NCBI GenBank assembly: GCA_032718475.1
Contig: JAUCBJ010002827.1
Coordinates: 1 to 64,000, forward strand
From: Nemertoderma westbladi
Lineage: Eukaryota; Animalia; Xenacoelomorpha
DNA: 64,000 bases
Direction of reading: 5' to 3'
The notes under the pieces are model-generated. The model was not told where the DNA came from. It was given only the letters and a program-made list of their open reading frames with translations, and made no database searches. Both the position numbers and the translations under genes were made by a program. Shown piece by piece: positions 12,303-47,945 of the stretch; position 1 is the stretch's first letter; every line of letters starts with the position of its first letter.

Positions 12303-12337
12303 CTTCGAACCGAATTGCTCTCTCAAACACAGTAACT

Positions 12338-16700: not shown

Positions 16701-18405
16701 GCTTGGACTGCGCTGGTGGTCTCTATAACAATGATGGGGAGAAGCGATACATCCTTCTCCTCACCTGCGCGTCTACCCGTGCACTACACCTTGAGTTGAC
16801 CTCCCAGATGGACGCCGAGGACACCCACAACGCACTGCGTCGTTTCGCGGCCAGGTGTTCCTGAGGTGTTGTACTCTGACAACACCGCCACCTTCAAACT
16901 ACTCAGTCGAGTTTGGGGCGGAACCGAGTGGCACTTTATTCTGGTCCACGCCCCCTGGCATGGTGGCTTCTGGGAGAGGATGGTTGGAGTAGTGAAGCAG
17001 GCGCTACGGAAGAGTCTGGGGTGCGCTGCACTCACCGACGACAAACTGCGAACTGTGCTGGCCGAGGTTGAAGCGACAGCCAATCGACGGCCCCTCGTAC
17101 AATCCCCTGACAGCAGTACCGAACCGTTAACTCCCACTCACTTTCTGTTAGGTGGCACTCCGCCACCTCTTGCGCCATTGGCCCTCCTCTCTCCTAAGGA
17201 CTACCCCCAATCTCTCTCTTCCTCATCCCGTCGCTCTGCTAAAGAGTTGAGGAGCAGCTGGCGCCGATCTGTGGCAGCTACTGAGGCGATCTGGAAGCGC
17301 TGAACCTCAGAGTACCTGCCCACACTTCGATACTGGCGTAGGAAGTTGCGTCCTGCGCCAAAGGTTGAGAGTGGAGCCATTGTCATTGTCGATACCCCCC
17401 TCAAGCCGCGATCGAGCTGGCCCCTTGGGAATGTTGTTCGGGTCCACCCTGGAGGACGCCCAGCATATAAAGGACATCACCCGCCTCCTACCCTAACTAA
17501 TTTCAAAATGGGCTGTCTGTCTGCATTTGGCTGTTTGGGTTGGTTTAGGAATTCTAAGTAAAAAAGAAAAAGACGAACAATCCAACTGTCTGACGAGTGC
17601 AAGGTCCAGGATATAATCCACCTAATCTAATTATAACCGAAAAGCTAGGACCTTGACGCTATTCCGGCTAGATAAGGCTTTAGTCCACTACAGTACTGGG
17701 TGATAGATTGGTACCGTTACATTACATATAATAACAAATCAACTAATCTATCGATAAATGAGATTAATATTATCAGGCAGTTAATAATATCGTATACTTC
17801 TGTCTGTTCTGTAGTTTATAAAGAGTTACCGGTACCGCACTGTCTTAGGTAAATAGTACAATATTATATTACAGGGTATATTAAATAGTTAAATTAGGGG
17901 GAAACACGTTTATGTTCTACCGGCTGACCATAACTAACTAACAAACTAACAATTGAACGGAAACAATCTATATAACAACCTAATCAGCTAACAATCTATA
18001 TATGGGTCTAACTAACAATCCAACCATCTAACATCAGAATATTAGTGGGCAAATCTGCACATGACAGACATGGTGAGTTGAGACTGCCAGACTGCAGACA
18101 GCTTACTGCAGTTGTACTGACTAGCTATTTTACAGCTGTCAGTCAGACTGTTGACTGCATTCTGGTCACGTGGTGAGCTCACGGTCGACTCTTACTAATT
18201 AAATAATGAAAGTAATTATGTATACTGTATTTATTGCTGCGAACTGAAATGTATTATACTGTAGGTTGATTATTTTATACTTATACTATATTATATTAAA
18301 ATATTTGAGTTACGAGGAGATGGTGAACACACAGCAGATGTCCGGGTCAATGGCCACGTATCCTCGCGCCCCCTTGCCGGACTTGTTCCCCTCGAGATAG
18401 ACTGA
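13752..18405 (+). pseudogene. pol: BEL/Pao Pol (protease, RT, RNase H, integrase) with stops, frameshifts and an insertion
   Basis: LLDTRS protease; YFLPHH; INDCLKTGPNL; YVND (mutated YVDD); YTDAS and PRLELMAA; PGCQNPADIGTRG; APWHGGFWERMV; C-terminal RPLAGLVPLE after the 17457-18313 insertion. Confidence 0.92.
17457..18313. mobile_element. 857-bp unclassified insertion in the integrase C-terminus
   Basis: Flanked by GAGGA (17452-17456 / 18314-18318). Removing it restores VHPGG-DGEHTADVRVNG. Confidence 0.75.
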
Positions 18406-18663
18406 CTTGCGCCCTCTAAGTCTATGTATGATTTCAACGCTTATATTACTCTGTCTCACTTTATTCTATGCTGGTATTATATTCCGTATTGAATTTATAT
18501 TAGTATATTGCCTTATGTTACTTTATCTTACTTGTATTGATGCGTAATGATTACTTAATTATTTGAGTGTCTGTATGCACTAGTTTAAAATTGGCTTTCC
18601 TATTTCTTGTATTTTCTGTCATTATTTATCGTCCTATTTTGAGCGATCAAAATAGGAGGGGAG

Positions 18664-19165
18664 TGTAAATAATCGCCAGGTTGTCGACCGAACTTTCTAA
18701 TTTATCTGTACCCATTTTTGGGATCGAAACGTAATCTGCTGTCTTGCAGCACTCTGTCCAACCTCCCTCTAGCGGGACGGTTGGCAGGCCCTCTTAGGAT
18801 CGAAACGTAGCTAACTGGCCACTCAGCAGTCTCCTTGGCTACCCAATCAGGACGCTTCCTGGGAAGGTATTTAAGGAGCTGCTCGCCACTTTTTCTTCAC
18901 TTCCAAGTCAACAACCCTTTCCTTGTGCAAACCCCGGCTTCAAAGCTTAGTGATTTAATTGTTTCCTCTTCTATTTCCTTATTATTCATTGAATTATTAA
19001 AAATAAACTCAGTTATCGCTTTTACTCAAAATCAACTTTTTCCACCTTCACCTTAAGAAATCTCTTCTACCTCTACTTTGGGAGCCGACACACAGTTGCA
19101 CTCCCTTCGGCAACTGGGATTCTAAAATCGAAGGACTCTGCATCTCCAACGCCCAGTTCGCCACA
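18664..19165 (+). repeat. 3' LTR of BEL element 1
   Basis: TG..CA termini, preceded by the PPT and followed by TSD ATAGT. Confidence 0.93.
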
Positions 19166-20849: not shown

Positions 20850-21318
20850 TGTCATAATGAAGTGGTAGTCAAATTTTACAAATGTAAAATCGGCCTCATA
20901 TAGAGAAACTACTGCGTAAGAGCCAAAACGGATTTCGACCAAATAGATCAACAATAGCTCAGATACTTGCACTATGGAGACTGATTGAAGGAATTAAGTC
21001 AAAGAATCTCCCAGCAGTCATGACTTTTGTGGACTTCAAGAAGGCATTCGACTCCATCCATTGTGTTAAAATGCTTGAAATCCTATGAGCTTATGGAATA
21101 CCAGAAGTAATTGTTGCTGGCATTGGATTGTTATATTGTGACACAGAAGCAGAGGTACTCTCTCCAGATGGTGAAACTGAGTTTTCTCAATCCTGGCTGG
21201 CGTACTGCAAGGTGACACATTAGCACCATTACTATTTGTAATTGTGCTGGATTACGCAATGAGGATGGCCACAAAGGGTGAAGATCTGGGATTCACACTT
21301 CAAGAACGCAAAAGTAGT
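20850..21318 (+). mobile_element. RTE-clade LINE, 5' part (RT remnant), interrupted by BEL element 2
   Basis: Translates to QNGFRPNRSTIAQI, FVDFKKAFDSI, GVLQGDTLAPLLF...LQERKSS and continues after 36376. Confidence 0.85.
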
Positions 21319-22566
21319 TGTACGCGCTTTTGAAGACCTTTAGCAGTTTAACCTGCCAAAATTTGTATGTCTTTTGGTTTATAAATAGACTTTAGAAGTT
21401 GACAAATATTTAATACCAATAAACACAACATTAGCAGAAGCCAGCCTAGTGCGCGTCCATTCACCCGCTGGATATACCCGGGAGACTGGATTCTGAGGGC
21501 TTAGATTATTATTGCAGTGTAAGCTTACTGTATTATTCGATTGATCGTTAATAAATAATTTCTGACTAATATTATTCACTTTCGGGAAATATTAACAGTT
21601 CCTTTAGGACGTGGCGCTCTATCTAGGTAAACAGAGATATGACTTATACTAATCACAACGGTAAGTCGGTAAGGCTTATGATTCACGTATGAGGCGCATT
21701 CTTTAGGAAATGCTTAGTTATCAGTCACAATCAGGCACACTACCGGTAACACACAATACGGCTCACTAATTTGCCGACCGTCAATGAATTTTATCATATA
21801 TAAAGAGAACAGCAACGGACTCATGTAGTGCTTATCAAATAGCATTAAATTCACTACAAACCACAATAATATAAGTCGCAATCGCTATATATAACCCGTC
21901 TCTCTAACCTGTAGTGTATCAAGAAAATTGGGAAATTTGGGTTCTTTATAGATATTCTCCAAATAATATTCAACCAAACAATAGTAAATAGCAGTATAAT
22001 AATGTATATTGAACCGATAATGTAAAACTGAATTGCGATCAGTTGATATGATAAGATAACAGTTATACGCTCTATAATTTAAGCCTACTAATGTTTCTTC
22101 TAAAGTATGAAAACGAATTGACTCTAGAGCCGGTGTTCCTGGCCTAGATAGCAACAACACAACAGTATCAAGAAAAAACAGTAAGACTGAACACTCCTAG
22201 TATGATCGGCCGAATATCTCCACATCGACAGAAAAAATCGCTCTGATTGGCTTAAGCTAAACAAAGAACCATGTGTCCAATGGCTGTTCCCATGTCAGCA
22301 ACCAGCTGTTAGATGTCGTAATCTGAATCATCAAGGCTAAGCTGTGTAAAGGTATTTGGTGCATTGCGGGTTTTTTGCCTTACCATGTCCGCCAAAACAC
22401 GTATATAGAAGAATGACTTTTATGTCCGTTAAAACACTTATAACGGTACCTCGCGGGCGAGGGGAATATATATATAGTTAGAGAGCCTTTTAGAGTATTC
22501 CAGCGCCTGGGGGGAAACTGGATTGCGAAGCAAAGGGGCCAGTTATATCCCACAGAAGCTTTTACA
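21319..22566 (-). repeat. 3' LTR of BEL element 2 (1248 bp)
   Basis: Near-identical to 35129-36376. Confidence 0.96.
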
Positions 22567-22644
22567 CCGCTCCCAGAAAATGGGATTTGAGTCTATAAAA
22601 TATACAAAATCACAGTTTCTAATATACGTAAATACTCTAAACAG

Positions 22645-25600
22645 TTAGTCTTTCTTGCGCGGACGGCGTTTACGCAGTTTTTTAAAGCTAGCCAGAGTCC
22701 TTTTCTCTTTGGGGCGAGCCACTTTACAAGGAGGGCTATAACTCCTGGGTGAAGGGTGCAATATGATTGCATCAGAGGGTGTAGGATTATGGTCGGTGTA
22801 TCCGCCAGTCGAAGTACCGGGTTGATTGACATCAACGTCAGGGGAGAGAGGTCTAACGGCTTTGAGAGCTCGTTTCAAGACAGCCGCTCTTACGGGTCCT
22901 TTACGAGTGGTCTGAACGAGGGCCGTGGGTGGACCATAGGCAGTTAGAAACCTCCGGGGTTTAATGGTCCTTTCCAACTCGTGTTCGCGGGCTCGGTATT
23001 CGTAAGGCCGTCGATATACTTCCTGTAACTCGGGGTGTGAGTTAACAAACAAGTCTCCATAGTCCGGATCCTGACGGATATAATTGATTAAGTTATAGGA
23101 ATGAAGGTCGCTAGGATTAACACTCCTGAGAAATTTGCGTACGAATTTGGTTGAAATACATTCTCCGACGCGCTTCAGTAGCTCGTAACTTGATATGCGT
23201 GATTTCTGTTCAACCGAAGCGAATAGATAAGGATGGAACGCATAAACTCCTTCGTAAGCGCGTCCGGGATAATAGCGATGGCGCGAATCACAATGTAAAT
23301 CAGCGTTCGCTTCCCAAGCTCTGATGTAACGTAGTGTGATCATTTCATCTACGCTTTCCAAATCGTGATTAAAAGGGCAATCGAAACTGGCATATCCCTT
23401 TAGTTGACAATGGTGACATTGAGTCATAAATTGAGGGCAAACCGCAAAGATATGCAAGTTATTGAGTCTGCAATATGCGCAATAAATTTCCATAGTCGGT
23501 TGTTCTTGGAAATAGGAACAGCGGACGTTGGTGTCCATGGGCGTATCGTGGTCTCTCGATGCGCATAACCGACAACGTTGCCTAGAAACATAGTTGGCAT
23601 GTCGATAATCGTACGCAGTGAGACACTGTGGACCTTGATACCATTCTATGATGTAATCGTTGTCGCTGTTCCGGGGCGCGATAGGCTGAATCTCTTCAGA
23701 TTCTAGACATATTGGTTCGTCTTCCAAGTGCATAGCTGAAGTGGGCGCGTCTGTCTCTTCAGGTGGACCTATTGTCTGAATTTCCACGACAGAATAACCT
23801 GTGGGGATTCGAGGTCTTTGTATAACAGAGGAGTGCAAGTTCGATATACAAATCTCTTGGAAAACGGCGAATCCAGCGCTATCCAACTTCTCTGCAGCTG
23901 AGTTTCTTAGGCTGAGCTTGGTCAAAGCGCGGTCTTTAAATTGGCTATCCACGTTGCGGAACGGGGTTAAAAATCGCCGGAAACATTCGAAACGGATGAA
24001 TTTATTATGTTCATCTAGCTTAGCGAGTTTGGTCCCAAGTATTAATGGATGGGCGCGTATAGTACGACTGCACACATCGGCTAGCCAACCGGCAAGTGCG
24101 GTGTTTTCAAAGATCGTGTATATAGCTAAGGAGGGACGGAGTGGAACACTCATGAAGCTATACACGGCGCCAGGTGCGGTCAATGGTCCATCAAAGTATA
24201 ATCGAGAATAATGGTCTCCGTATACTTGTTGATAGTTAATGGGATTTCCGACTTTGAAATTCCATCCGTATTCCTGAAAGGCAAGATGTCCGATGGAAGT
24301 TCGTTGCACCTTTGTAATGTTGCTAGACGTATTAGCATACATAGTGCGGAAGAAACCTCGACCTTCTGCCCAGGGAGCAATCAGCTGAGTATCAACGAAA
24401 GGGTATGGAATGTTCTCCATATTCCGAAAGTCGTTTTGGAGATCTCCATAAACAGCTGAGCCGATTTTAAGGATTCTTTCATTGAACAACATCTCGAGTA
24501 CGGGCTGGGGTAACATCGATCCATCGATGCCCATGGCCGGTTTGCGTTCGGTGTCAATGAAGTAACGCTGCGCGAGTTCGAATTGTCCATGTCGGAGATT
24601 CTTTTGTGTTTCAGTGAGAGTTTCAAAAGAATAATCAATCACGTCGGAACACGCTCGAGTAAACACGTGGGTAGAACCAGCTAATCCGCGTATGTGGATC
24701 ATGCGCGTAGTTCCTAGTTCTCCGACCGGAACGCTACCTTCATTATCGTAGGTGACAACTCCATACATCTCAATAACATTAAGAGTTTCATTCCACTCCT
24801 TGGTGGCGTTCTCTAGGGTCATCCCTACTGGATGCCACAAGGTGGCGCATTGGTTAGCGTCAGGGAGATCACTATACTTCATATGCCGAGTGGTATACGT
24901 CTCCACATTTCCATATCTTTGTATTTTCTCTTCTTCAAATAATACATCTAGATTCCAATGGACTAATCGAGTTTTAATAAATCCATCGAGATTATAAGGA
25001 GGTTCTATATCTTTCTCGATTCGAGAAATGTTATATGGTTTTCTAAATGAGTTTACCTTTACTAACTGATCCAGATGTTTCTGCAATTGTTCGAGTTCGA
25101 CAATGTCTAGAGGATTTATTAGTGGTAGAAACTTTAAATTATGTGTCGGGTCTTCTGGTTTTACCATATAATATTGAGTCAGATTAACGTAATAAGGGTG
25201 GTCTTTAATCCCATAAAACGAGTTCTGTAAAGGTCTAGCGCGTATGTTGACATCGTGTACCATACGACGGACAAGATCCGCTCGATTGTCCGGAGGTTCA
25301 ACGAGTATACCGTCAACACGAGCGGCCTCGATCGGCGGACGCTGTAACATAGGGGCGTCAGCGATAAGATTTTGCGATCCTGTACTGATATCAACCGGTT
25401 GAGGTTGTATCGTCGCGAAGAGCTTGTCCCCGAAATGTGGAATCATCGAGGGATGACGAACGGTTTTAGAGTAGAGGTCCGTCATGAGGATTTGAGCTTC
25501 CGGTTGGGCTAAAGCGGCTTCTTCTCTCTCTTCCAGTTTCGTGTGTTTCTCTTCGAGTAGATTTTCTTCCGCTTGTCTCTGTAAGCGTTCATCTAAAAAT

Positions 25601-26898
25601 TCTTGTAGAGAATACGTGCGTCCAAGCTCGATGTCTTCCTCGAGGTTTTGGATTTCTCTATCGAACTGTGGCAAGGCTAACTCCTTCACCGATTGGACTT
25701 GTTGTTGTAATTTACGTTTCTCTAAACAATCTTGTGTTCCCTTTCCGATTTTCTGTCGAATGGCGTCTAAAGCGTTTCTTATAACGCTCTCCTCGACTTC
25801 CGTGGCGGGTTGCATCGGGTTTAATCCTGGACGATTGTAAGGATCAAAGGGCGATATTAGCTGCCCGCGTCCCAATCCGGCTAAGTAGGATGGGCGGATG
25901 TCTAACGAACCCACTACCGGAGCACCACCGATTAATTGTTCGGGTAACACTAAGTCTTTGAACAGGGAATATAGTTCGGGAGGATCAGTGATACTGTTAG
26001 GATCAAGAGTTTGAGGTCTCACTAGGGAATGAGGAGGCCTGACCGAGTATTCCGGAACTCTGATCATGGGTTTATTCAGTGATCGTTTAAGACGAGCGAT
26101 CGTGGGTGGTATGTCGAACAGGTTTCGCTCGAAACTCCCGTAAGTGTAACACGTAAAACTATGTTTAGCGCAACGTCTCCGCGGATGTTTGTGTCTTTCA
26201 GTTTGTTGGTTGGGTCTAGGGCATTCGTCACAATAATACCAAAGACGTACGTCCTGTAGAGGAAACGCGGGTGAACGTTCTCCAGTTTTGCAATATTCTT
26301 CCATTTGTTCAAAACTATCCGGGATAACAGGTAGTGGACGATCGGCGGTAAGATACATCATAGTGAAATAGAGCCGTTTGAGTTCTACCACAGGGTCGTG
26401 ATGTATACCTTGAGGATATCGAGTCTCTAAGTTCTGCTGACTAGCGATGTTGAGATAGGTTTCTCTCAAAAATTCTAGGTATTCGTTGAAGTCGATGCGT
26501 TTATCCGGTTCTTCAACGTTTTCTCTTTCCAGTCTATTACGAATAGAATTTTCGTGATCTATTCTCGGTTTATCGTTACGACTCCGCTGGGTATGATATT
26601 TAAATAGAACCATTTCCCTCTCTGTATCTACATCGTCCGTATCATGTAAATCGATAGGATGGCCGGTCGTTAAGAAGTCCATATACGTACCATTACGATT
26701 CGTATAGCGAGTGGTGAATTTTCGATAGTCCAATTCACGCGCAAGTTGCTCTTGGGACATCGGCGGTTCGATATAACGACCATCGTCCTCCGTAATGGTT
26801 GGATCGGCTTCACCGCGTATTAAGCTATCCACAAATGCTTGTAAAGGTAGAGTATATCGCTCCCTAATACCAAGATCATCTTCTATCAACTCCGTCAT
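22645..26898 (-). CDS. Accessory ORF: 1417-aa protein with DEDDy-type 3'-5' exonuclease-like domain, three CCHC-type zinc knuckles, coiled-coil and basic C-terminus
   Basis: ExoI VVTYDNEG (~24736-24759); ExoII LPQPVLEMLFNERILKIGSAVYGDL; FVDTQ; ExoIII-like PLRPSLAIYTIFEN. Knuckles CRLCASRDH..C, CAYCRLNNLHIFAVC and CHHCQLKGYASFDC (~23375-23580). C-terminal KKLRKRRPRKKD. Confidence 0.8.
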   Translation of the reverse strand: MTELIEDDLGIRERYTLPLQAFVDSLIRGEADPTITEDDGRYIEPPMSQEQLARELDYRKFTTRYTNRNGTYMDFLTTGHPIDLHDTDDVDTEREMVLFKYHTQRSRNDKPRIDHENSIRNRLERENVEEPDKRIDFNEYLEFLRETYLNIASQQNLETRYPQGIHHDPVVELKRLYFTMMYLTADRPLPVIPDSFEQMEEYCKTGERSPAFPLQDVRLWYYCDECPRPNQQTERHKHPRRRCAKHSFTCYTYGSFERNLFDIPPTIARLKRSLNKPMIRVPEYSVRPPHSLVRPQTLDPNSITDPPELYSLFKDLVLPEQLIGGAPVVGSLDIRPSYLAGLGRGQLISPFDPYNRPGLNPMQPATEVEESVIRNALDAIRQKIGKGTQDCLEKRKLQQQVQSVKELALPQFDREIQNLEEDIELGRTYSLQEFLDERLQRQAEENLLEEKHTKLEEREEAALAQPEAQILMTDLYSKTVRHPSMIPHFGDKLFATIQPQPVDISTGSQNLIADAPMLQRPPIEAARVDGILVEPPDNRADLVRRMVHDVNIRARPLQNSFYGIKDHPYYVNLTQYYMVKPEDPTHNLKFLPLINPLDIVELEQLQKHLDQLVKVNSFRKPYNISRIEKDIEPPYNLDGFIKTRLVHWNLDVLFEEEKIQRYGNVETYTTRHMKYSDLPDANQCATLWHPVGMTLENATKEWNETLNVIEMYGVVTYDNEGSVPVGELGTTRMIHIRGLAGSTHVFTRACSDVIDYSFETLTETQKNLRHGQFELAQRYFIDTERKPAMGIDGSMLPQPVLEMLFNERILKIGSAVYGDLQNDFRNMENIPYPFVDTQLIAPWAEGRGFFRTMYANTSSNITKVQRTSIGHLAFQEYGWNFKVGNPINYQQVYGDHYSRLYFDGPLTAPGAVYSFMSVPLRPSLAIYTIFENTALAGWLADVCSRTIRAHPLILGTKLAKLDEHNKFIRFECFRRFLTPFRNVDSQFKDRALTKLSLRNSAAEKLDSAGFAVFQEICISNLHSSVIQRPRIPTGYSVVEIQTIGPPEETDAPTSAMHLEDEPICLESEEIQPIAPRNSDNDYIIEWYQGPQCLTAYDYRHANYVSRQRCRLCASRDHDTPMDTNVRCSYFQEQPTMEIYCAYCRLNNLHIFAVCPQFMTQCHHCQLKGYASFDCPFNHDLESVDEMITLRYIRAWEANADLHCDSRHRYYPGRAYEGVYAFHPYLFASVEQKSRISSYELLKRVGECISTKFVRKFLRSVNPSDLHSYNLINYIRQDPDYGDLFVNSHPELQEVYRRPYEYRAREHELERTIKPRRFLTAYGPPTALVQTTRKGPVRAAVLKRALKAVRPLSPDVDVNQPGTSTGGYTDHNPTPSDAIILHPSPRSYSPPCKVARPKEKRTLASFKKLRKRRPRKKD

Positions 26899-27711
26899 AT
26901 CTGCTATCTGAGTTTATTAATATCAAATAAGTTTATATTTAGGCGAGCGGGCGTCGCTGCCTACTTCTCTTTGCCCCCGGACAGTGGGATTCTCAGCGCC
27001 GATGTACCGTCGTCGCGGTGTTTACGCCAACATGTAGCAACAGCACGACAACGATAACTGGCACAAGTCACTCCACTGTCCGTCCCAAAGGCTTGGATCC
27101 ACTTAGGTTCTTTCTATAGGAGAGTTGGGCTACTTTTACAATTGCGACTAGCTACTGTAAACATACTTTAGCAGTAACATTCACCTATAAACGCACAAAT
27201 TCCACACAACTGTCACCAACTGCACACATACAGGCCATTTGTCCGTTAGTCAGTGCCTTCCAGAATGTCACGTTATTACTGTGTATCCTTGGATACTAGC
27301 AGTGTGCTATATTCTCTATGCTATGCAATGGGACAAGCTTTCTATTGTTCTTTTAACTTGCTTCTAATTCTAGCGTGGGTGTTGCTATGGTGACATTATG
27401 GAATGCTAGCGGTAGAATTAGGGTAATTCTCATGCATACAGATCTGGGATGCTATTTAATAATAATTCTTTAATTGTCAATATCCTCTTTATGCATGATT
27501 TTATTAATTTTATCGGCTATTGACTATATGTTGGAGATTCTCGCACTCTAATACACTCAATAGGATGAATCTCCGCTCCCATGATCTATTAATTAATGGA
27601 ATTTTGGGAATGTTATAAATTGTACAAAATGACAATTTATGAAATTCATTTAAAATATGAATTTAAATTTATTCCCGTGAATTTTATTATTTGATGTTAA
27701 AATTGACACAA

Positions 27712-27976
27712 TTTGATTCCAGAGCAGGTCTGGGGACATAGGATCCTTAATTCTATGAAATTTGTCTTTTAAGAGTATCGGTAAGTGCTACGATATCTTA
27801 ATCGACTAGAATTGTTAACGGATCTGAATTTTACAGATTGTAATAAATATTAAATTAATATTTAAGATGGGCACCGATTTATTCCAGAGCTTGTCTGGGG
27901 ACGTTAACCACTGATTCTAGAATTGGTCTTTCAAGTATATCGGTGGGTGCCGCGATATCTTAATCGACTAGAATTA
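27712..27976. repeat. Two ~100-bp imperfect direct repeats in the integrase-accessory ORF spacer
   Basis: ATTCCAGAGC..TCTGGGGAC...CGATATCTTAATCGACTAGAATT at ~27716-27813 and ~27881-27975. Confidence 0.8.
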
Positions 27977-28523
27977 CAGATGGTCAAAAGGTTTAACAGA
28001 TTTATTTGCGTTTTACGCTACTGTTAGAGGGACATCACGCTACTATATGTATTATTTAATATAAGGTAGAAGAGCAATATCGCACGAAGCAATGTCAGTG
28101 TGAAGAGGCAAGTCGTTTCCAAGGTCTACCCAGAGCTTGGTTTAGCCGAGACACGAGGATCTGAACTTTGCATTCCTAATACTCTGCCTACTAATAATAC
28201 TTGAATATAGTAGTGGCTTTATTGTACTTTAAGAAGTATGGACATTTCATCTTACTGTAGTCACGTATTTATAATATGATACGGACAGTAAGGAAAGAGA
28301 AAAATAATTATTTTCTCGCCGTCGCACTAAATATATATTATAAGTAATTACGTACGTAATAAACACTAATATATCGCACTAATCTACTAAATAATCACTA
28401 AAATAACATTCTACTAAATAAAATTGAATAAAAACGATTATAATAAAGTACATAATAAAGTTCGCATATAAAAATGTAATAAAATAGATAAAACAATATA
28501 GTCATACACCCACTCCAGACGTA

Positions 28524-30062
28524 TCACGTTGGGGAGTCCCTAGATGTTTGAGGAATTAGGGAGGTGGTCGTGGGAAGAGTGTCTTGCCTTCCATAGTTTC
28601 CAGAGAGTTCTCTGTCTCTTTCCAGTAAACATAAACGACCAACTGGGCGATTGAGTTGTTGCGTCTCAAAGATTATGCCTGGCTTCTTGAAGTTACGCCG
28701 CATGACGACAAGTTCTACTGAGCGCACTAAACCATCATCCGAGATGTGAGTCTCGATGATACGACCTGTCTGCCACCGTTTACGTGGGAGGTCTGGATCT
28801 ACAATAAGCACCATATCTCCGGCGCTGACGTTTTCTTGCTGCGCAAACCACTTAGTTCGAAGTTGTAGCGTGGGCAGATAATGTTTCTCGAAATGGTCAG
28901 CAAAACGACGGGATAGCAACTGCATAAGTTGCCAAGTTCGACGGCAGTATTCGTCTCCGTCGGCAATCTCCGATCGTGGGAGCATGGCTACAGGTTTCTT
29001 CAGTAGGAAGTGCGCGGGTGTTAGCGCTTCCAGGGAATCGGGACTCGATGAGACTGGCATAAGCGGTCTCTCGTTGAGATAGGCAGCAATTTCCTCCATT
29101 AATGTCCGCAAAAGTTCGTCGGTGAGATACGCGCGGCATGGCACTATAAAGTGAAATGCGGTTTTGACACTTCGAATTAATCTCTCCCAACTTCCTCCCC
29201 ACCAAGGGGCGTCGGCGGCATTGAAGGTCCAGCTAGACGCTGTTATCCTTAGCTGGTCGTCCACCTGTCTTTGGTTCCAGTCCTTCACGTAAGCCTGTAT
29301 TTCGTTGTTGGCACCAATGAAGTTCGTTCCCTTATCCGATCTCATGGTATTACTCGTCCCGAAGCGAGCGATCTGTCGTCGTAAACTTAAGACGAAGCTG
29401 TTGGTAGATAGATCGTTCACCATATCGAGATGGATGGCTCTACAAGTCATGCACACGAAGATGACACACCATCTCTTGACTATAGTCCTAGCACGATATA
29501 CTTCAATAGGGCCAAATAAATCTACACCAGTATTAGTAAAAGGTGGTTCATAGAAGCTTACTCGTTCCCTAGGTAATTCTGCCTCTCGCTGTGTTAAAGG
29601 CCTACTGAATGCCTTCCTACAGGGTATGCAGTTCCTAAGAACTTGGTTCAGAGCTCTACGGGGTTTATCAAAATAATAGCGAGTTCGAATTTCGCTAAGA
29701 ATTCGTTCTCTACCAGCATGATAAAGTTTACTGTGAACATCTACAATCATCTTGATTTGTACATCAAGATTTCTAATAAGTATGGGGAATTTGGTGTCAA
29801 AGGATAAGGGCGCATTGGTGAGTCTTCCTCCAACACGTATTAACCCATCTATCATTGTGCTCGAGAATCGATCCCTTAAGCGCATCTGCGGATTTCTCAA
29901 CAACAGGAAATACTTTTCGGAATCCTCATAGCATTGCAGGAGTCTCAGTATCTGCTTATTGGTTTCTTCATGTTCCTGGTGACTAATTTTATCCTTTAGA
30001 AAACGGTCAGATGTCTTATATTTGGGTAAATTTTTAATAACATGAACGTGTGCAGATGTCAA
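28524..30062 (-). CDS. pol: BEL/Pao integrase
   Basis: HSKLYHAG...CIPC zinc finger; PFTNTGVDLFGP; SDKGTNF; APWWGGSWERLI; C-terminal domain ending RPVGRLCLLE. Confidence 0.93.
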   Translation of the reverse strand: MTSAHVHVIKNLPKYKTSDRFLKDKISHQEHEETNKQILRLLQCYEDSEKYFLLLRNPQMRLRDRFSSTMIDGLIRVGGRLTNAPLSFDTKFPILIRNLDVQIKMIVDVHSKLYHAGRERILSEIRTRYYFDKPRRALNQVLRNCIPCRKAFSRPLTQREAELPRERVSFYEPPFTNTGVDLFGPIEVYRARTIVKRWCVIFVCMTCRAIHLDMVNDLSTNSFVLSLRRQIARFGTSNTMRSDKGTNFIGANNEIQAYVKDWNQRQVDDQLRITASSWTFNAADAPWWGGSWERLIRSVKTAFHFIVPCRAYLTDELLRTLMEEIAAYLNERPLMPVSSSPDSLEALTPAHFLLKKPVAMLPRSEIADGDEYCRRTWQLMQLLSRRFADHFEKHYLPTLQLRTKWFAQQENVSAGDMVLIVDPDLPRKRWQTGRIIETHISDDGLVRSVELVVMRRNFKKPGIIFETQQLNRPVGRLCLLERDRELSGNYGRQDTLPTTTSLIPQTSRDSPT

Positions 30063-30075
30063 TGGAGCGTTATCA

Positions 30076-31035
30076 CTAGTGGTCTTCGTCCTGGAGTAGT
30101 GATGATGAAAACATCGTCTTTAAATATGTGACGGCTTTACAGAGCCGATTCCAGGAACTGTAATGATGCATTGCTCTCTGCAGCATGGGTGAGATTCCTT
30201 GCGAGACGTCTGGTATTCCAGATTTCCAATCTCTATCTCTAATTTCCACAACAGACTTATTTGTGTTGAGGGATTGTGGATCCGAAGCATCATTCCCGGA
30301 AGTATGTAATACAGATAGATCGATAGTCGGTTTAAATAACTTCGATTTACTCGCCCGGGTTTTAGGTTTGACTGTCTCCGCTCCCTTGGCTTGTCTAATC
30401 TCCGCCGTAGTAAGGTGAGGAGGCCATTCATCCTCTTCCTTGTTCAGGAAGTCGGGTCCACCCAACCAATCTGGAGTATCTATCAGTTCCTGTGGAGTTG
30501 CTCCCCTGGAGGCGATATCGGCTGGATTAATCGTACCAGGGCAATGTCTCCATTGATCTATCTTTGTGCGACTAAGAATAATAGCTACTCTGTTAGTAAC
30601 AAAAATGCTGAACTGACAGACTTCATTGGTTAGATACTCCAACACGAGTAAAGCGTCAGTCCAATAAACCGTTTTCTCCAGTGGATAGTCGATTTGTTCC
30701 GTTACGTTCCGGCCGATGGCTGTAGCGTATAAAGCCGCCTTTAACTCCGCTCGAGGAACCTTTAACTTGTTGTTAATCAATGCCTTAGAGGTAACCAAGG
30801 CGACTTTGATTCCATCCGGAGTTTCGACTCGCAGATATGCTACTATACCTATTCCCATGTCGCTGGCGTCTCCAAACACATGGAGTTGATAAGAATACGT
30901 AGGAAGAACATGGCCAAAATATGCACGAGAAATTATAAAGTTCTCGATGGCAGGTAGAGAATCTTCCCATTTCATCCATTTCTTTAACAATTCTCCCTTA
31001 AGCGGATCGTCCCATGAGTGGTTTTCAAGCCACAT
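30076..31035 (-). pseudogene. pol: BEL/Pao RNase H region (Pao peptidase A17-type), out of frame with the integrase
   Basis: SWDDPL, LHVFGDAS, PRAELKAA, WTDA, FVTNRV and WRHCPGTINPADIASRG motifs. Confidence 0.9.
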
Positions 31036-31043
31036 TTGTTGTA

Positions 31044-32894
31044 CTAAACTTCGACCGCCGAAGCGGGAGTCGCCAACATTGTAGCGGGCTGACGCGGGAT
31101 GACAGGAGACAAATCTTTGATTTCTCTCTCAGATTCCAGGACAGGGATATTCTCATGGACTGTTCTACCGGGTACAGGCAGTGTAGTACTGTGTAAAGGG
31201 AACTTAGAGTTAAGCTCTGGAAGTACAGGGGTCTCTAGCACAGGAGTGACTTTGGGAACGACAGGCCTAATTATTTCAGGCTCATCAACTATAGTAGGGA
31301 GTTTTTTGACCTTAATAATTTGGTCTGTAGGTTCTATTCTACTTAAGTCTGTGCTAGCTAGTTGTCTTCTCACAGCTGAGGGCAAATCAGGCAATTTGTG
31401 ACGGTAAGATGTTTTTCTACGCCTGCTTAGACGAGATCTATTTCCTCCGCCTTCAGGATCGGTGGTTTCGCTTTCCTCCGATGACGTATATCCCTGGCGT
31501 TTGGGAGTAGATCTTCTCATCATCTGCATGTGACTAGCAGTTAACTGTTTATTTATGTTGTCTTGCGTCTCTTGCAGATTCTCCAACTCCAGTTGGGTAG
31601 TCTCCTCAGAGGCTCTCCATTCTGCTTCTGCCACTGCCTTTGCTGCTTTTCTTTCTGCTTCTGCTTCTGCCTCCGCTGCCTTTCTTTCTACTTCTGCTTC
31701 TGTCATGGCCGCCGCCTTTTTTTCCTCTATCCGTCTTTTCTTTACTTCTTCTTCCTGGACTCTAGCGAGGCGAAGTTTTTCATCAAATTTAGCTTGGTTT
31801 GCAGCTAACATTTCAGCATCGATTGAGTCTAACACACGCTGGGTTCCTTCACTATTAGGGGAAAGTCCAGACAGCCGTCTCCTCAACTCTTCGTCTCCTA
31901 GGAAACGCTGATAGTCGGACAGATAAATGTCGATGGCGTCTCTCGTTCGTGGTCTCTCTGCGGTCTCTTCGCCTTCCACTTGAGAAAGGGTGGCATCGGT
32001 TGGTTCTTCATAGGTTAGTCTCTCAGACAGCTGGGATTTCCACTGGTCCGTTTCTTGTACTTTGAGACCTACCCGCTGGAACCAAGTTTTGACAGCAACC
32101 TGCAGCGACGTGTCCTGTCTTCTTTTGGAAGTTTCCTCAAAGGCTGATAGGATTAGTCTAATGCGTAGGGTTCTTTCACGTACTTGATAAAGCAGCTCTT
32201 CCTGCTCTTGAGGTCCTTGGGGTTGTCGAAACAATTGTTCTTCCAATCGCTCTAAGGAGCCGAAGAATCCCTGCACATATCCTGCTGCCGACCTCTTCCA
32301 AACAGCTGGATCCATCGTATCTTTAGCCACTCCCATCCTGTGTATATCTTCCCAAGTAGCCTCGGACAAATCTAACGGGAGTCCGGGTCCGGGAAAGTTC
32401 CATTGTGACTCGACAACAGACATCAATTCTCCCCTGGCGTATCCCGCATAATTATCTTGGGTCGCGCTCATACTTCTCGCCCAATCGGCTTGATGTTCTT
32501 CCACCGCAATCAATATAGTAGTTAGTACTGCGGCAGGAAGGGTGAGAAGGGGGTCCGAGTAGGCTGTAGCCGCCATCTGCAATCCGCATTCGGGGGTCAG
32601 CTCTACAGTATCCGAACTACTGGAGCTATCTGATCGCTGGGAACAAGTTTCTTGACTAGGATGTTGCTGCTGTTGGACAGCTGCTTCCTGGTTCCGCTTG
32701 ACTTGGGCCCGAGTGCCGATGATAGACCTACGGTGTTGGATCAGCTTAGGGTCTGATACTACTACTGGAGGGATGACTTTTCTTTCAGTAGGAGGTGAGC
32801 TGAACTCCTTTCTTAATCGCTCCACACTCCTATCTGTGTCACAGATGGTTGTATCGATTAGACTGTCTGACAGGTTTTGCTGGGTGTCAGACAT
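31044..32894 (-). pseudogene. gag: N-terminal part of Gag, truncated by an internal deletion that removed the Gag core, protease and RT
   Basis: 616-aa charged/coiled-coil ORF at the gag position, joined at ~31040 directly to the RT-RNase H connection. No protease or YVDD motif is visible anywhere in the element. Confidence 0.7.
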
Positions 32895-32974
32895 GTTTAG
32901 CTATACAGTTGAATGCTTACTGCTATAGTTACAGTTAAAGCAAGTCTAGTAATTCAGTATGACCGTTGGCCTAG

Positions 32975-35065
32975 TACCGGTAATTTATTACAGTATATTA
33001 GAATACCGGTATGCACTTATAATATATATAAGTATTGTAAACTAGTTTTGTCACAGAGTACCGGTATATAAATTTAGCACAAATATATATAAATATATAA
33101 TAGGCCTATCGTGAATACCGGTATACAGCTTACACTTATAGTATATATAAGTATAATTATGAACTAGAATTAATTACAGAATACCGGTATGATTTTAGCT
33201 CAAATTTATAGAAATAAATATAATAAGCCTATGGTAAATACCGGTATGTCAATTATTTTAGAATAATTGAATTTCTGAATATTTTAGGGTTACTTGGTTA
33301 CTTTAACTTACTTTATTACCGTTATTTAAGCAGTAGTCCAACTGATATTGAGACCTAGTTGTTGTATGGCAGGCCTACTATTTATAAATCGTTTGAGTTG
33401 ATTTATAATAGATATATACCCGTTTAAAAATGGGTTTTGTCAATATTTGAAATAAATGTTATTATTTCTGGGGGGTCACTACACAGAAGCTGTGCGCTCT
33501 CAGTGGAGTGCTACTTATGGGACACTAAAACAGATAATTCTAATTTACCTAAGTTACTTAATACTACAAATTACTTACGATACGGGTGAGATTAAATCTC
33601 TAATTAAACACAACAAAAATATTATGTACGAATTTTTAGGGTAATTTTACAGGAAGTCTACAAACCAGCCTAACAAAGGGTTAGAATTCTGGTTATTCTA
33701 TCGGACAGGGTACTACGGTATTTAAAATAATAAGTAGTAGTAAATATATTGCGCTGTCCAGATAGGAAAATACCACCGCCTGACGACCTATAGCCGTATC
33801 GCTATAGGTACTACGTTATGTATCACGGAGTGTTCCTACCTGGAAGTTAGTTACCGCGGACTACCAGATCCAGCGTGCCTATTAACCACTTTACAACACA
33901 AATATACTGCCTACACACTAATTACCTCGGAAAGCACTGTACACTAAACCCTAAATTAGGTACAAATACTGGTACAACAAATAATCAGTAGTTAAATATA
34001 CTTGAACAGTTAAAAGAACCACGGCATCTGCTGGAGTGACCGAAGCACAAAGTCACCAGTCTTTTCCTACGCCAAGCAGCCCATGTAGTACCGGGGTTAA
34101 TTTAACTATAACGGTATGTGTAACAAGCACAATTACTGTAGGAATAAACTTGGGGACACGAATGTTGCGAATAATCGCATAAACTCTGAATAATAAATAT
34201 TACGCTACCCATACAGAATACTCAAACAAAATACAAACCAAACGCTGGCAGACTACCACCAAGCCCAAATAAACTACCGTACGTGTAGATTCCGAAATGG
34301 TTAGTTAGTATGCGTTCTAACACGGTAGTACGACTTATTCTTTAAGAGGGGATTGACCTTACAGCTATGGCTGCCCCAACTTACTAACTGGCACTTTATC
34401 AGACAAACTCTACACACGCAGCAATCTCTTCAGACCTAATAATAGCTAGACAACAATCCAGCCTACAAAATATCTGAGTAATAACTATTACGGTACCTGA
34501 ACAGACCACACAAACAAACACAGGCCAAAACGTTGGCAGAATACTGTCAAGCCTAAATAAACTACAGTATGTGCAGATTCCAAAATGGTTAGTTAGTATG
34601 CGTTCTAACACGGTAGTACGACTTATTCTTTAAGAGGGGATTGACCTTACAGCTATGGCTGCCCCAACTTACTAACTGGCACTTTATCGGACAAACTCTA
34701 CACACGCCGCAATCGCTCCAAACCCAACAACAATCTAACAACAGTCCGGCCTACAATTATCTGAACAATCTGAGCAGACTTACACGTCTTCAGCTCAATA
34801 TTAACTTACTAGGAAATAAAACTGACAGAAATAAGTAAAGTCTCAATAAAAAACCAGGGCTGCAGTCCCTGATTAAATACTAAGACCTACTGGTATACAA
34901 TAATCAAAATCGAATAATACTAATGTACTTATACTGGAAGTACCGGTTAGGACAGTTGGGCCTACGGACCTACAGAAGTACCAGTTCTGGCAGTTGGGCC
35001 TACTGACCTACAGAAATACCGGTTCTGGCAGTTGGGCCTACTGACCTACAGAAGTACCGGTTCAG
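32975..35065. repeat. Repeat-rich 5' leader of BEL element 2
   Basis: ACCGGTAT units spaced ~60 bp apart (32975-33250), a ~190-bp direct duplication (~34235-34420 and ~34525-34710), and three ~37-bp units CAGTTGGGCCTACTGACCTACAGAAGTACCGGTTC (34950-35065). Confidence 0.8.
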
Positions 35066-35128
35066 GTTTACCGGTCGACCGGTACTTTCAACTTTATTGC
35101 TTACTGCAATAAAGACAATAACTGTTAT

Positions 35129-36376
35129 TGTACGCGCTTTTGAAGACCTTTAGCAGTTTAACCTGCCAAAATTTATATGTCTTTTGGTTTATAAATAGAC
35201 TTTAGAAGTTGACAAATATTTAATACCAATAAACACAACATTAGCAGAAGCCAGCCTAGTGCGCGTCCATTCACCCGCTGGATATACCCGGGAGACTGGA
35301 TTCTGAGGGCTTAGATTATTATTGCAGTGTAAGCTTACTGTATTATTCGATTGATCGTTAATAAATAATTTCTGACTAATATTATTCACTTTCGGGAAAT
35401 ATTAACAGTTCCTTTAGGACGTGGCGCTCTATCTAGGTAAACAGAGATATGACTTATACTAATCACAACGGTAAGTCGGTAAGGCTTATGATTCACGTAT
35501 GAGGCGCATTCTTTAGGAAATGCTTAGTTATCAGTCACAATCAGGCACACTACCGGTAACACACAATACTGCTCACTAATTTGCCGACCGTCAATGAATT
35601 TTATCATATATAAAGAGAACAGCAACGGACTCATGTAGTGCTTATCAAATAGCATTAAATTCACTACAAACCACAATAATATAAGTCGCAATCGCTATAT
35701 ATAACCCGTCTCTCTAACCTGTAGTGTATCAAGAAAATTGGGAAATTTGGGTTCTTTATAGATATTCTCCAAATAATATTCAACCAAACAATAGTAAATA
35801 GCAGTATAATAATGTATATTGAACCGATAATGTAAAACTGAATTGCGATCAGTTGATATGATAAGATAACAGTTATACGCTCTATAATTTAAGCCTACTA
35901 ATGTTTCTTCTAAAGTATGAAAACGAATTGACTCTAGAGCCGGTGTTCCTGGCCTAGATAGCAACAACACAACAGTATCAAGAAAAAACAGTAAGACTGA
36001 ACACTCCTAGTATGATCGGCCGAATATCTCCACATCGACAGAAAAAATTGCTCTGATTGGCTTAAGCTAAACAAAGAACCATGTGTCCAATGGCTGTTCC
36101 CATGTCAGCAACCAGCTGTTAGATGTCGTAATCTGAATCATCAAGGCTAAGCTGTGTAAAGGTATTTGGTGCATTGCGGGTTTTTTGCCTTACCATGTCC
36201 GCCAAAACACGTATATAGAAGAATGACTTTTATGTCCGTTAAAACACTCATAACGGTACCTTGCGGGCGAGGGGAATATATATATAGTTAGAGAGCCTTT
36301 TAGAGTATTCCAGTGCCTGGGGGGAAACTGGATTGCGAAGCAAAGGGGCCAGTTATATCCCACAGAAGCTTTTACA
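35129..36376 (-). repeat. 5' LTR of BEL element 2 (1248 bp)
   Basis: Near-identical to 21319-22566 and followed by TSD GTAGT. Confidence 0.96.
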
Positions 36377-40934: not shown

Positions 40935-43809
40935 TTCTTGAAATATGGGGTATTAATTTCAAAGCCAGCTGCCATTTTATTAGCCACTGATTTTTGATAA
41001 TCAAAATTCTTCATAGCCTGCGGCACATGCTCCGCCAAGAAATCTCTGAATTCTCCCCGATTCTCCGGCGTCCACCTGTCCAAATACCTCTGCGTATTTA
41101 TCACTCCGGCATACGACGCCGCCTTCGACACCTCCTGATAGGTAAACGGAAGTCTCCATTTTATAATCTCCAGGTGGGCCTCTTGGTTGATATTAAAGAA
41201 TGGCCTTCATCCGCTGTCGGGTCATGGTACCGACGTCAGCCCACTCCTCGAAGATCCTAAACTTCTCCTCGTCGTCCATCCAGTCGCACTGGCGTCCGTA
41301 GTGCCCCCGGAAGTTGCACTTAGAGCACCGGTTGTGCAACCGTGGACACGCCCCCATCCTATGACTCGACTCGCGGCAGTAGAGACAGCTAGTCCCCTTT
41401 TGGAATTGGTACAGGCAGTTCCTTTCCTGGTAAGTTTGCCTCCCGCAGTAATCGCAACCGAGTACCAATGCCTCCCACCCCATGTCGTCTTTCCTCCCAA
41501 GCGATCTCCTCGGTCTATGGAGTCGCTGGTAAGCGAACTTCTGGACGTTAGCGTCCCTGTCCACGTCTATCTCCTCGCCCCTCCTGGGCATCGTCTCCCC
41601 GAATACTACCCATGGTGCCATTCCCGGTTGCTCGCCCAACCTGATGGTGCTCCCCGCGAAATCCATCGCTGGCTCCTCATGCACCCAGGCCCGCTTGCCG
41701 GGTCTATCCCAGAAGGCCCTCGCCCCGCTGGCCATCACCACTCTCCCGCCAACCCAGTCTGTGCCCGATTGGCCGATCCTCCCAATGGGCGGCATCTCTC
41801 CGAACTCGTCGTCATCCTCGTCTTCCTCAGGGAGTGGTTCCAATCCCGGTAACCCGGTGGATCCACTGTGTCCCTTCCCACCTTGGCTCTCGCCCATGAT
41901 TCTCCATCCTTCCAGCTCCCCCGGCCTCCTCTGCACGAAATCGCCCTCGGCGCCCGCTGGTATGGGTGTCACCTGCAATCCCGATGTCGACTGTTTCGGT
42001 GACCCTACCGTCCACCCCAACTCTCGCCCTAGAGACTCGCCCGAACTCCCTGATGATGTCCAACGAAGTTCGTCTAAGGCCGCCTGTTCCTCGAACCCGT
42101 AGCTCTCTGCTCTGGCTGCCTCCTCCCTTTCTTCTGCCTCTCTCCTTTCTCGTCTAGCGATTTCTTCCAATCGCTTCTCTTCTCGTCTATCCGCCTCTAG
42201 CTGCTCCCACCTCTGATATGGCGTATCCGCATCCCTGTCTACTAGATGTCGGCAGTTATAATACACCGACTCGCCCTTCAGCCCCGGGTGGTCTACCAGA
42301 CCCTCGAAAGCCACTCTGAAGGCTCTTCTGTAGTTCAGGGGTGATCCCGATAGCAGGAATGCTGTTGGTTCTCTCTCGATAACCACGGTGATGAATAGGT
42401 TTAGCAAACCTATCATTATCCAGTCCTCCTGCAGGATATATCGCTTCTGATATACCTTTATCGCTCCTCTCCGGAATTGATACACCTCTTGCTTCCCCGG
42501 CCTCGCTCCCCACTTCAGCGAGTTTGCCAACTCCGCTCCGTACTCCTCCCTGATTTTACCCCAGTCCATTGTTTGTGGCATACGAGTCCCATTAGCTGGC
42601 CCATCGCCACCGCTCCACAATGGCCCGCGTTCTCCACTAGTCCCAACCCGTCTGGTGCCATCATAGCCATGTAGACCGTTTGCGTATCCAGGAGGTTGGA
42701 GGTCTCCGGACCGATGATCCTCTCCGCATCGTCGCGGATCGCCGATCCCACCTTTATCGTCGACTTCTCCCTTACTAGACTCTGCACCGCTTTCGGCAGC
42801 CGGTTCAACTTCGGTCCGTTCTTCTTCCCATACGTTCCTAGATCGAACAGGAATATATCCCCATTTGGCGCGGCCAAATGCAGGAGTATGGTTCTGGCCG
42901 ACCCCGCCGACCCTCTTCTCGAACCTTCCTTGTCTTCCACGGTCCCCTCATCGTCTAGGACCATGTATCCTCCCCTGCTGACGGACTCTACGAACCTCTT
43001 CCAATCCTTTCTCGGTGGCTCCTTTGCGTACTTCGGTATCCCGAACTTCGCCTCGTCTCCCTTCACCATGTAGTGGAAATGCTCGAAGATCGCATTGTCT
43101 AGCGACGGTGTCCCGTAGGTCCCGACCAGTCGCTGTTCGTGCACCTCCCTGAAATGGTCCTGCAGCGCTCGCGCTTTGTGACCCCTCTCTAACCGCTCGT
43201 AGTATCCCCTCGTCTTTTCTTCCGGATGCCTCTCGGTGAAATCCACCAGTATCTCCTTCCCTCCCAACTCCGCCTTTCTCTTTCTGACCAGTTCTCCGCC
43301 ATTTCGAACTTTCCCGATCGCTCACCTATAAGATGGGGCCTTGCCAAGGCACAATATAAATGAGTGATGTGGTTTGGATGGTCTGTACTGTCCGATAATG
43401 GCCTATCTCTCACTGTATGTTAGGTTATCGCCTAATTTTCCTACCCTAATTTCCTAAAAGTGCCAAATTCTGCTAAATTTCGTAATTCTGTCCGTTACTT
43501 AAATTATGTTCCAGAATATTTCTCCTACTGTTACCATAATTTGTCTAATTTTCTATTTTTATTTAATTTTAATATTTAATTTTATCCTACAACTGTATTA
43601 TCAATATCTGCTAATGGATTATTCTACTTTATAATCCATATTCTAGCCTACTCTATGGGCCTGTGCAGTACAGCAGTATGTATCGCGTGGCCTACACGAT
43701 TTATCCAGCTGTACCCACGTGCCCCCCTCTCGCTACCTACCACTAACTCTACTAACTTTCCAACTGATTTCTACTAATTCTTACCATATACTATATTATA
43801 CATATCCTC

Positions 43810-44345: not shown

Positions 44346-44449
44346 TTCTATCTGCCTACTTACCTATTGCGTATCTACTATGTACTATTACTTTCCTTTA
44401 TCTTTCTTTCTTTCTCTATTATTTTTAATTTTATTATTTTTTTTATATA

Positions 44450-47940: not shown

Positions 47941-47945
47941 TGGTA

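Follow-up and report, generated by a model that had tools for sequence, protein, structure and literature searches.

The stretch of DNA considered here (hereafter the window) comprises 64,000 nucleotides from the xenacoelomorph Nemertoderma westbladi (GenBank assembly GCA_032718475.1, contig JAUCBJ010002827.1, positions 1 to 64,000 of the forward strand) and harbors, on its minus strand at 21319-36376, a 15-kb long terminal repeat (LTR) retrotransposon of the BEL/Pao superfamily. Between the integrase gene and the 3' LTR of this element lies an uninterrupted open reading frame (ORF) of 1417 amino acids (aa), hereafter ORF3. On balance, the element is best understood as a young, internally deleted BEL/Pao copy, in which ORF3 is probably an accessory gene of the lineage, coding for a protein predicted from its sequence to combine a divergent DEDDy-like exonuclease domain with three Cys-His knuckles.

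The frame opens with an ATG at 26898, the first to occur, five codons past the upstream stop, and closes with a stop at 22645; given the base composition of ORF3, the chance of a frame of this length staying open is ~4e-34. An unbroken accessory frame had been claimed in the original prediction, a model's reading of the bare letters, as had three properties of its product that are recovered here: an extra N-terminal Cys/His cluster, a C-terminus resembling a nuclear localization signal (NLS), and the lack of the membrane features of an Env protein. In the product, P0001, neither a transmembrane segment nor a signal peptide was found (the highest Kyte-Doolittle mean over 19 residues is 1.2, and the N-terminus is acidic), and Env identity is thereby ruled out. 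The parts of the frame are as follows:

22645..26898, minus strand: accessory ORF3 (protein P0001), 1417 aa, intact, from the ORF list and its translation
26143..26244, minus strand: N-terminal Cys/His cluster, residues 219-252
25474..25761, minus strand: E/L/Q-rich stretch, residues 380-475, a possible coiled coil (16 E, 12 L and 11 Q in 76 residues)
24049..24780, minus strand: predicted DEDDy-like (RNase D/WRN-type) exonuclease-like domain, residues ~707-950
23377..23574, minus strand: three Cys-His knuckles, residues 1109-1174
22648..22761, minus strand: basic, NLS-like C-terminal tail, residues 1380-1417, read from the sequence

When residues 218-1417 of P0001 were compared by phmmer with 1.84 billion representative proteins, a single match was recovered, the 648-aa protein P0002 (E = 1.9e-5), itself a singleton. 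By BLASTP, residues 796-942 of P0001 align with residues 107-244 of P0002 at 31% identity (E = 1e-13), and the Cys-rich knuckle region aligns with E = 0.002. The other relative lies within the window, in a second, older BEL/Pao element:

41193..43321, minus strand: frame-broken ORF3 homologue, 3' of the integrase gene of the second BEL/Pao element

This gene survives as two overlapping frames, 42515-43321 and 41193-42947. The first carries the DDE, ExoII and DTQ motifs (42680-42964), within the successive blocks MVLDDEG, TILLHLAA, IFLFDL, IKVGSAIRDD and LLDTQ; the second carries the Y-x3-E motif (42420-42443, block RYILQEDW), three C-x2-C knuckles (41286-41456) and a tail of the form EKF..W..G..TRQR. 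A tblastn search of the window with P0002 returns ORF3 (E = 7.9e-13) and, from the second element, the knuckles with the tail (E = 2.5e-10, 44% identity) and the exonuclease-like part (E = 3.5e-5). The three retrotransposon-type sequences, i.e., P0001, P0002 and the second-element gene, are ~25-30% identical, and the invariant columns of their three-way alignments include D718, E720, K811, G813, S814, D819, D836-T837-Q838, Y927 and E931, together with the Cys residues of the second and third knuckles. Nothing in either relative corresponds to the first ~700 residues of P0001, which include the N-terminal Cys/His cluster. The pol proteins of the two ORF3-bearing elements are themselves only ~30% identical, and the presence of a homologue at the equivalent position behind the integrase of the second element marks ORF3 as the lineage's own accessory gene rather than a chance frame or a one-off capture. 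These comparisons place ORF3 in a gene family that is small and old. No relatives beyond P0002 came from word-indexed protein searches with the whole of P0001, with P0002 or with a profile of the two; the same profile confirmed none of 63 pattern stretches on genome contigs or of 289 on viral contigs, and tblastn of the domain against phages gave no match.

A foreign origin of ORF3, as a captured host gene or a nested element lodged between the integrase gene and the 3' LTR, would agree with the 1.6-kb non-coding spacer that separates it from pol, with a summed word depth (a weak measure) that, in the public sequencing runs X1, X3 and X4, reaches its minimum for the element in the interior of ORF3, and with an element length well beyond the 4.2-10 kb given as usual in a survey of the superfamily (PMC3118150). 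Such an origin is nevertheless very improbable: the second element, despite a pol so distant, has its homologue in the same place after a spacer, on which ground a captured host gene or nested element is rejected, and no extra LTRs or target-site duplications (TSDs) were found around ORF3.

The second element (41193-50991, minus strand) codes for a DUF1759 Gag, an aspartic protease, Peptidase_A17 and integrase, with pol at 44588-50252; its spacer (43841-44356) has tandem repeats of 37 and 51-54 bp, and no LTR pair was found for it with a 12-nt seed and a minimum length of 60 nt. A third BEL/Pao element (12078-19165, plus strand), with 225-bp LTRs (97% identical), a DUF1759 Gag and Peptidase_A17, leaves no room for an accessory ORF; thus, within the window, not every BEL/Pao element has the extra gene.

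The relationship of the central domain to exonucleases emerges from several comparisons. Among 18,950 NCBIfam models searched with residues 685-965, the only matches were to RNase D (TIGR01388, E = 0.0026; NF008089, E = 0.019), both on residues 798-844, and P0002 has a weak match in the same place to the Pfam family PF01612 (E = 0.2). A scan of metagenome contigs with a 9-residue pattern taken from the block shared by P0001 and P0002 gave 264 pattern matches, from which come two loci, L001 and L002. An ORF of the latter (L002:3303-3974) passes the PF01612 threshold (25.9 bits against a cutoff of 23.6) and matches the ExoII block of P0001 by BLASTP (E = 1e-6), and hhalign pairs the three retrotransposon sequences with it at 87% probability (E = 3.9e-6) over 31 columns. 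Because L001 and L002 had been chosen via the pattern, only the 15 residues adjoining it were scored: their score of 31 was reached by 12 of 2,000,000 random 15-mers, i.e., ~1.6e-3 after correction for the 264 candidates. In a protein atlas built with a language model, P0001 (0.88) and P0002 (0.86) are nearest to the same cluster, of whose members 100% have PF01612 and 61% zf-CCHC; for both, the second-nearest cluster is EXD1-like.

The proposed DEDDy-like motifs read D718-x-E720 (ExoI), K811-I-G-S-x4-D819 (ExoII), D836-T-Q and Y927-x3-E931 (ExoIII). For ExoI, the counterparts of VVTYD718-N-E720 are SIDVE in P0002 and VLDDE in the second element, a placement that depends on the three-sequence alignment. 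ExoII, KIGSAVYGD819 in P0001, is invariant and is the block behind every significant comparison; Y927-x3-E931 is present in all three sequences. Taken together, the weak but concordant evidence from NCBIfam, hhalign and the atlas suggests the exonuclease-like reading, and an exonuclease-like fold of the domain is quite likely; the identity proposed at the outset thus gains support of this kind, although no curated threshold is reached.

The region at L002 (7049 bp) is of interest in its own right: positions 3058-5270 hold an intron-split PF01612 exonuclease gene beside ORFs that have no Pfam match, and these neighbors we take to resemble fungal KDZ-type transposase genes. If that resemblance holds, L002 would add a further case of an exonuclease domain carried along by a mobile element.

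Several observations weigh against reading the domain as an exonuclease and the protein as knuckle-bearing. P0001, searched whole and in sub-segments to E = 10, matches no Pfam family other than DUF7353 in the N-terminal extension (E = 0.12), and the RNase D score of 17.1 bits falls far below the curated NCBIfam cutoff of 298.95. The quantitative support for an exonuclease comes entirely from a single block of ~45 residues around ExoII. When the third sequence was left out, MAFFT put ExoI elsewhere; the spacing of 98 residues between ExoI and ExoII implies an insertion relative to P0002; and ExoIII has E where the family has D. A Smith-Waterman comparison of ExoIII alone with the PF01612 ORF was not significant: out of 3000 shuffles in each case, 643 reached the score of P0001 and 1349 that of P0002. 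Sequence and profile searches of the PDB returned no exonuclease, only unrelated rows with E >1, and AlphaFold2 gave no usable fold, either for residues 568-1117 as a single sequence or for residues 685-965 with a four-row alignment (mean predicted local distance difference test, pLDDT, 29 and 33, respectively). Both atlas scores are below 0.9, with 164 and 163 shared features against the 170 typical of true family members. The knuckles of P0001 (C-x2-C-x4-H-x9-C, C-x2-C-x5-H-x4-C and C-x2-C-x4-Y-x4-C) are non-canonical in two or three of the three, through altered spacing or the replacement of H by Y, and the family has only three members. On the knuckles, residues 1118-1417 of P0001 have no match to Pfam zf-CCHC, and P0002 reaches that model (PF00098) with no better than E = 0.046; P0002 and the second element have canonical C-x2-C-x4-H-x4-C knuckles, and P0001 keeps their register, with its knuckles 2 and 3 agreeing with theirs in spacing.

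These observations give some room to an ORF3 unrelated to exonucleases, i.e., an orphan structural or regulatory protein of nucleocapsid-like kind, in which the ExoII-like block arose by chance or convergence. Pfam, PDB and AlphaFold yield nothing for it, significant similarity spans only ~45 residues, and L001 and L002 were found via a pattern drawn from that same block. Yet RNase D was the sole NCBIfam family to match, and was found without the pattern; the atlas gave its result for two sequences only 30% identical; DxE, ExoII, DTQ and Y-x3-E are collinear at spacings plausible for beta-strands; and the extension beside the pattern stays significant after correction for the 264 candidates. 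An unrelated orphan is accordingly distinctly unlikely. Somewhat different is the possibility that the fold is right and the domain catalytically dead, serving with the knuckles as an RNA-binding or adaptor module in the manner of EXD1 or Maelstrom. The EXD1-like second-nearest atlas cluster, the E for D in ExoIII and a divergence so extreme that Pfam finds no match would all be in keeping with it, and the same point is raised for the ORF3s of bdelloid rotifers by Rodriguez et al. 2017 (PMC5408684). The D-x-E, the aspartate of ExoII and the Y-x3-E are, however, invariant at ~25-30% identity, which is not expected once catalysis has been lost, and a dead domain is therefore rated unlikely. Because the five key residues are invariant at that identity, an active enzyme is predicted, albeit with low confidence.

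If ORF3 indeed encodes an active exonuclease with knuckles, the latter might tether the protein to single-stranded RNA or complementary DNA (cDNA) in the replication complex of the element, much as nucleocapsid does, so that 3' ends would be presented to the RNase D-like domain, which would bind or trim them; nuclear delivery could be the task of the basic tail. Processing the 3' ends of the element's own RNA or cDNA would then be the likeliest role. A counter-defence role, wherein an active RNase D/Mut-7-like exonuclease with knuckles trims or destroys the PIWI-interacting RNAs (piRNAs) or small interfering RNAs (siRNAs) of the host, or their precursors, and defective copies supply a shared anti-silencing factor, seems rather improbable.

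The element around ORF3 shows the marks of the BEL/Pao superfamily: LTRs of the TG..CA type, a 5-bp TSD, Peptidase_A17, RNase H and an integrase with DUF5641. Its order from 5' to 3' is 5' LTR, leader, ORF1, Peptidase_A17/RNase H, integrase, spacer, ORF3 and 3' LTR, the last beginning 78 bp after the ORF3 stop:

36377-36381 (right) and 21314..21318 (left), no strand: target-site duplication GTAGT, from comparison of the flanks
35129..36376, minus strand: 5' LTR, 1248 bp
32895..35128, minus strand: leader, 2.2 kb, containing a 288-bp direct repeat (34240-34756)
31044..32894, minus strand: ORF1, 616 aa, N-terminal part of a Gag-like protein
31050..31054, no strand: internal deletion breakpoint, with Gag core (DUF1759), protease and reverse transcriptase (RT) missing, from contigs diverging on both sides
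30076..31128, minus strand: pol remnant, RNase H preceded by the C-terminal portion of the Peptidase_A17 region
28524..30119, minus strand: integrase ORF with Integrase_H2C2 (E = 1.1e-7) and DUF5641 (E = 1.8e-20), from Pfam
26899..28523, minus strand: spacer, 1.6 kb, between integrase and ORF3
21319..22566, minus strand: 3' LTR, 1248 bp, TGT..ACA, with 6 mismatches to the other LTR

The element is a deletion derivative of BEL/Pao. By Pfam and by reading of the ORFs, no DUF1759, aspartic protease or RT is present in this copy, which leaves it short of the autonomous set; the window's two further BEL/Pao elements each have a DUF1759 Gag, and one of them also has an aspartic protease. In the low-complexity ORF1, the deletion falls 10 nt ahead of the stop; a Pfam search with this ORF gave no match, and it has no Cys knuckles. 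The ORF of the pol remnant begins inside Peptidase_A17 (profile positions 33-161 of 162, E = 5.3e-24, Pfam), and the RNase H ORF (30076-31128) and the integrase ORF (28524-30119) are in different frames, with an offset of 1. The spacer has no frame of at least 60 aa on the element strand and is gapped in sibling contigs. Thus, the deletion of Gag core, protease and RT and the frameshift between RNase H and integrase that had been called from the letters alone are both confirmed, the breakpoint being moved from ~31040 to 31050-31054, and so are the ~99.5% identical LTRs, which differ at 6 positions of 1248 bp (99.52% identity, 0.48% apart).

The insertion interrupts a LINE (long interspersed nuclear element) reverse-transcriptase gene on the plus strand, flanks of which are seen at 20888-21318 and 36377-36957 with translations including FVDFKKAFDS, GVLQGDTLAPLLF and DFAEDIALLS. 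Contigs of the public runs X1, X3 and X5 contain the empty-site joint 21312->36376, with 6 shared letters, because uninterrupted copies of the LINE exist.

That the breakpoint is real, and that undeleted relatives exist, follows from contigs that diverge from the window sequence at 31050-31054. In X1, 28 contigs leave it behind 31054, 8 before 31054 and 9 before 31050; in X3 there are 5 behind and 4 + 3 before; X4 has 1 behind and X5 has 1 before. The sibling contigs from the two sides overlap by at most 5 letters. The family is highly repeated, with 106,539 contigs of X1 and 28,457 of X3 matching the element at an identity of at least 90%. The highest summed word depths in X1 and X3, ~1.2-1.3 million, fall on the non-coding parts 27324-28377 and 33121-34174, against 0.14-0.8 million elsewhere in the element, depth being a weak measure; other repeats, or solo or deleted derivatives, may contain these two parts too.

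How ORF3 fares in siblings can be judged from the substitutions and gaps of sibling contigs against the element. The pieces compared are those listed, chosen by the tool from >100,000 contigs matched to the element, and this selection tells against leaning heavily on the outcome for the proposed reading:

ORF3: 15 pieces, 217 substitutions, 1 gap, gapped pieces 1/15
Non-coding internal parts: 5 pieces, 47 substitutions, 17 gaps, gapped pieces 5/5
pol and ORF1: 7 pieces, 127 substitutions, 1 gap, gapped pieces 1/7

The share of gapped pieces differs between ORF3 and the non-coding parts (Fisher P = 3.9e-4). ORF3 behaves like pol and unlike the spacer, which fits a functional gene of an active lineage. 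In this very copy, ~10 substitutions are expected in ORF3 since insertion, and 68% of simulated copies remain free of stops; at such an age, its intactness needs no selection. An intact ORF3 in a crippled copy thus most likely reflects the youth of the copy and not selection on a non-autonomous subfamily.

Such a subfamily was the explanation first offered: copies sharing the deletion would be mobilized in trans, with selection maintaining ORF3 and a spliced subgenomic RNA, its acceptor just upstream of the ATG, serving for its expression. The youth of the copy, its intact LTRs and TSD, the high repetition of the family and the coding-type conservation of ORF3 in siblings would be in line with this account, and the undeleted relatives implied by the contigs diverging at 31054 make helpers plausible. 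The sharing of the deletion, however, is not borne out: the junction at 31054 is bridged by no contig among the matches listed (4/4 pieces of X4, 8/15 of X5 and part of those of X1 and X3), and one template-switching event, or the loss of the segment later on in an individual copy, would account equally well for the breakpoint. Neither is ORF3 visibly spared in siblings relative to pol, as the subfamily account had it. Among the matches listed, 15 of 131 joints are seen; 5 of these lie inside ORF3, skipping 2804, 209, 160, 139 and 106 bp, all of them out of frame, as against 2 in pol. In X4, the contig with the 2804-bp deletion has a word depth of 2918 compared with ~280-850 summed in bins inside the ORF, though depth is a weak measure, and intactness is in any case expected by chance at the age of the copy. 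As for splicing, the acceptor-like CTCAG and AGCAG are present as had been described, within 17 nt of the ATG, but an AG within 20 nt is expected by chance, and they are rejected as evidence of splicing; no joint from the leader to ~26.9 kb is seen among the 15 of 131 joints listed, and none of the runs containing the stretch is on record as RNA; X5, tentatively taken for RNA, also contains the empty LINE site and deletion variants. Any expression of ORF3 might proceed by splicing or, alternatively, from an internal promoter in the 1.6-kb spacer. On the whole, a trans-mobilized subfamily appears doubtful. The 2804-bp deletion itself (23725-26528, joint 23724->26529) recurs in contigs of X1, X4 and X5, one of which bears a different species label, so an ORF3-less derivative is common to these runs.

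Elsewhere in the window, a 985-aa open frame on the plus strand (3899-6856) has eight WAP four-disulfide-core domains (Pfam E = 3e-29) and probably represents a gene of the host or else a large exon, and long arrays of ~10-bp tandem repeats lie near both window ends (1911-2400 and 61582-62500).

The wider meaning of a young, internally deleted BEL/Pao copy with a DEDDy-like accessory gene depends on that prediction. LTR retrotransposons seldom carry accessory genes besides env, and little is understood of those that exist. If the domain is real and active, the same kind of enzyme would have been recruited independently by a third retroelement superfamily, which would point to a general benefit, be it 3'-end processing of element RNA or cDNA or interference with small-RNA silencing, and would offer a tractable protein for testing. 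The family is invisible to Pfam, and hence has probably been missed in transposable-element annotation. Should the exonuclease reading be wrong, the element would be unexceptional, a young and defective retrotransposon copy that happens to carry an orphan ORF.

Among cellular enzymes, the parallel is with the PF01612 family (DNA_pol_A_exo1: RNase D, WRN, Mut-7/Nibbler and EXD1), of which Mut-7, Nibbler and EXD1 are linked to small-RNA pathways. With these, ORF3 shares the collinear ExoI DxE, ExoII K-[IV]-G-x5-D and a candidate ExoIII Y-x3-acid; it differs from them in having no Pfam match, an E for D in ExoIII, an insertion between ExoI and ExoII, and a retrotransposon as its bearer. The euglenozoan "CCHC-type domain-containing" proteins of the atlas cluster nearest to P0001 and P0002 likewise have PF01612 followed by zf-CCHC, but they are cellular proteins of 381 aa from another phylum, and the atlas scores of 0.88 and 0.86 are leads only. 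The knuckles recall those of retroviral and retrotransposon nucleocapsids: P0002 and the second-element gene show the C-x2-C-x4-H-x4-C spacing, and P0001 is in register with them. Here, however, they belong to an accessory protein and not to Gag, P0001 has altered spacing or an altered H in two or three of them, and P0001 does not match zf-CCHC.

Within the superfamily, the env-like ORF3 of a few other BEL/Pao elements, as covered by de la Chaux & Wagner 2011 (PMC3118150), is likewise a third ORF between the integrase gene and the 3' LTR. The gene described here differs in lacking a signal peptide and transmembrane segment, and its element measures 15 kb even after the deletion, against 4.2-10 kb in the same text, where env is the only extra gene mentioned. 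In full-text searches of literature other than subscription journals and Repbase entries, no report came up of an exonuclease gene in BEL/Pao, nor of one fused to nucleocapsid-type knuckles. A DnaQ-like exonuclease is listed among the known accessory domains of LTR elements (PMC6338049).

The closest known systems are the ORF3s of bdelloid rotifers, where, according to Rodriguez et al. 2017 (PMC5408684), the LTR retrotransposons Juno and Vesta and the Athena/Terminon elements carry a DEDDy exonuclease described through its ExoI, ExoII and ExoIII motifs, with one catalytic acid altered (DEED) and, in some members, a Cys-His-Cys motif. The same text proposes 3'-end processing or interference with silencing and discusses counter-silencing and a dead adaptor role, and the description of these ORF3s is repeated in a review (Arkhipova & Yushenova 2019, PMC6431247). 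As far as these descriptions go, the parallels are close: an extra ORF that follows pol and takes the place of env without coding for an envelope protein; DEDDy motifs of RNase D type in which one acid is changed, DEED there and Y-x3-E here; and, in some bdelloid members, an added Cys-His motif. The bdelloid elements, compared here by description, are Ty3/gypsy-like or Penelope-like and their ORF3s are reported to have "strong homology" to DEDDy enzymes, whereas the present gene belongs to BEL/Pao and stays below every curated threshold; it also has three nucleocapsid-type knuckles behind the domain and ~700 orphan residues ahead of it. What would be new, then, if the domain has been read correctly from its residues, is a DEDDy-like ORF3 in a third superfamily, fused to knuckles, preceded by a long orphan N-terminus and too divergent for Pfam.

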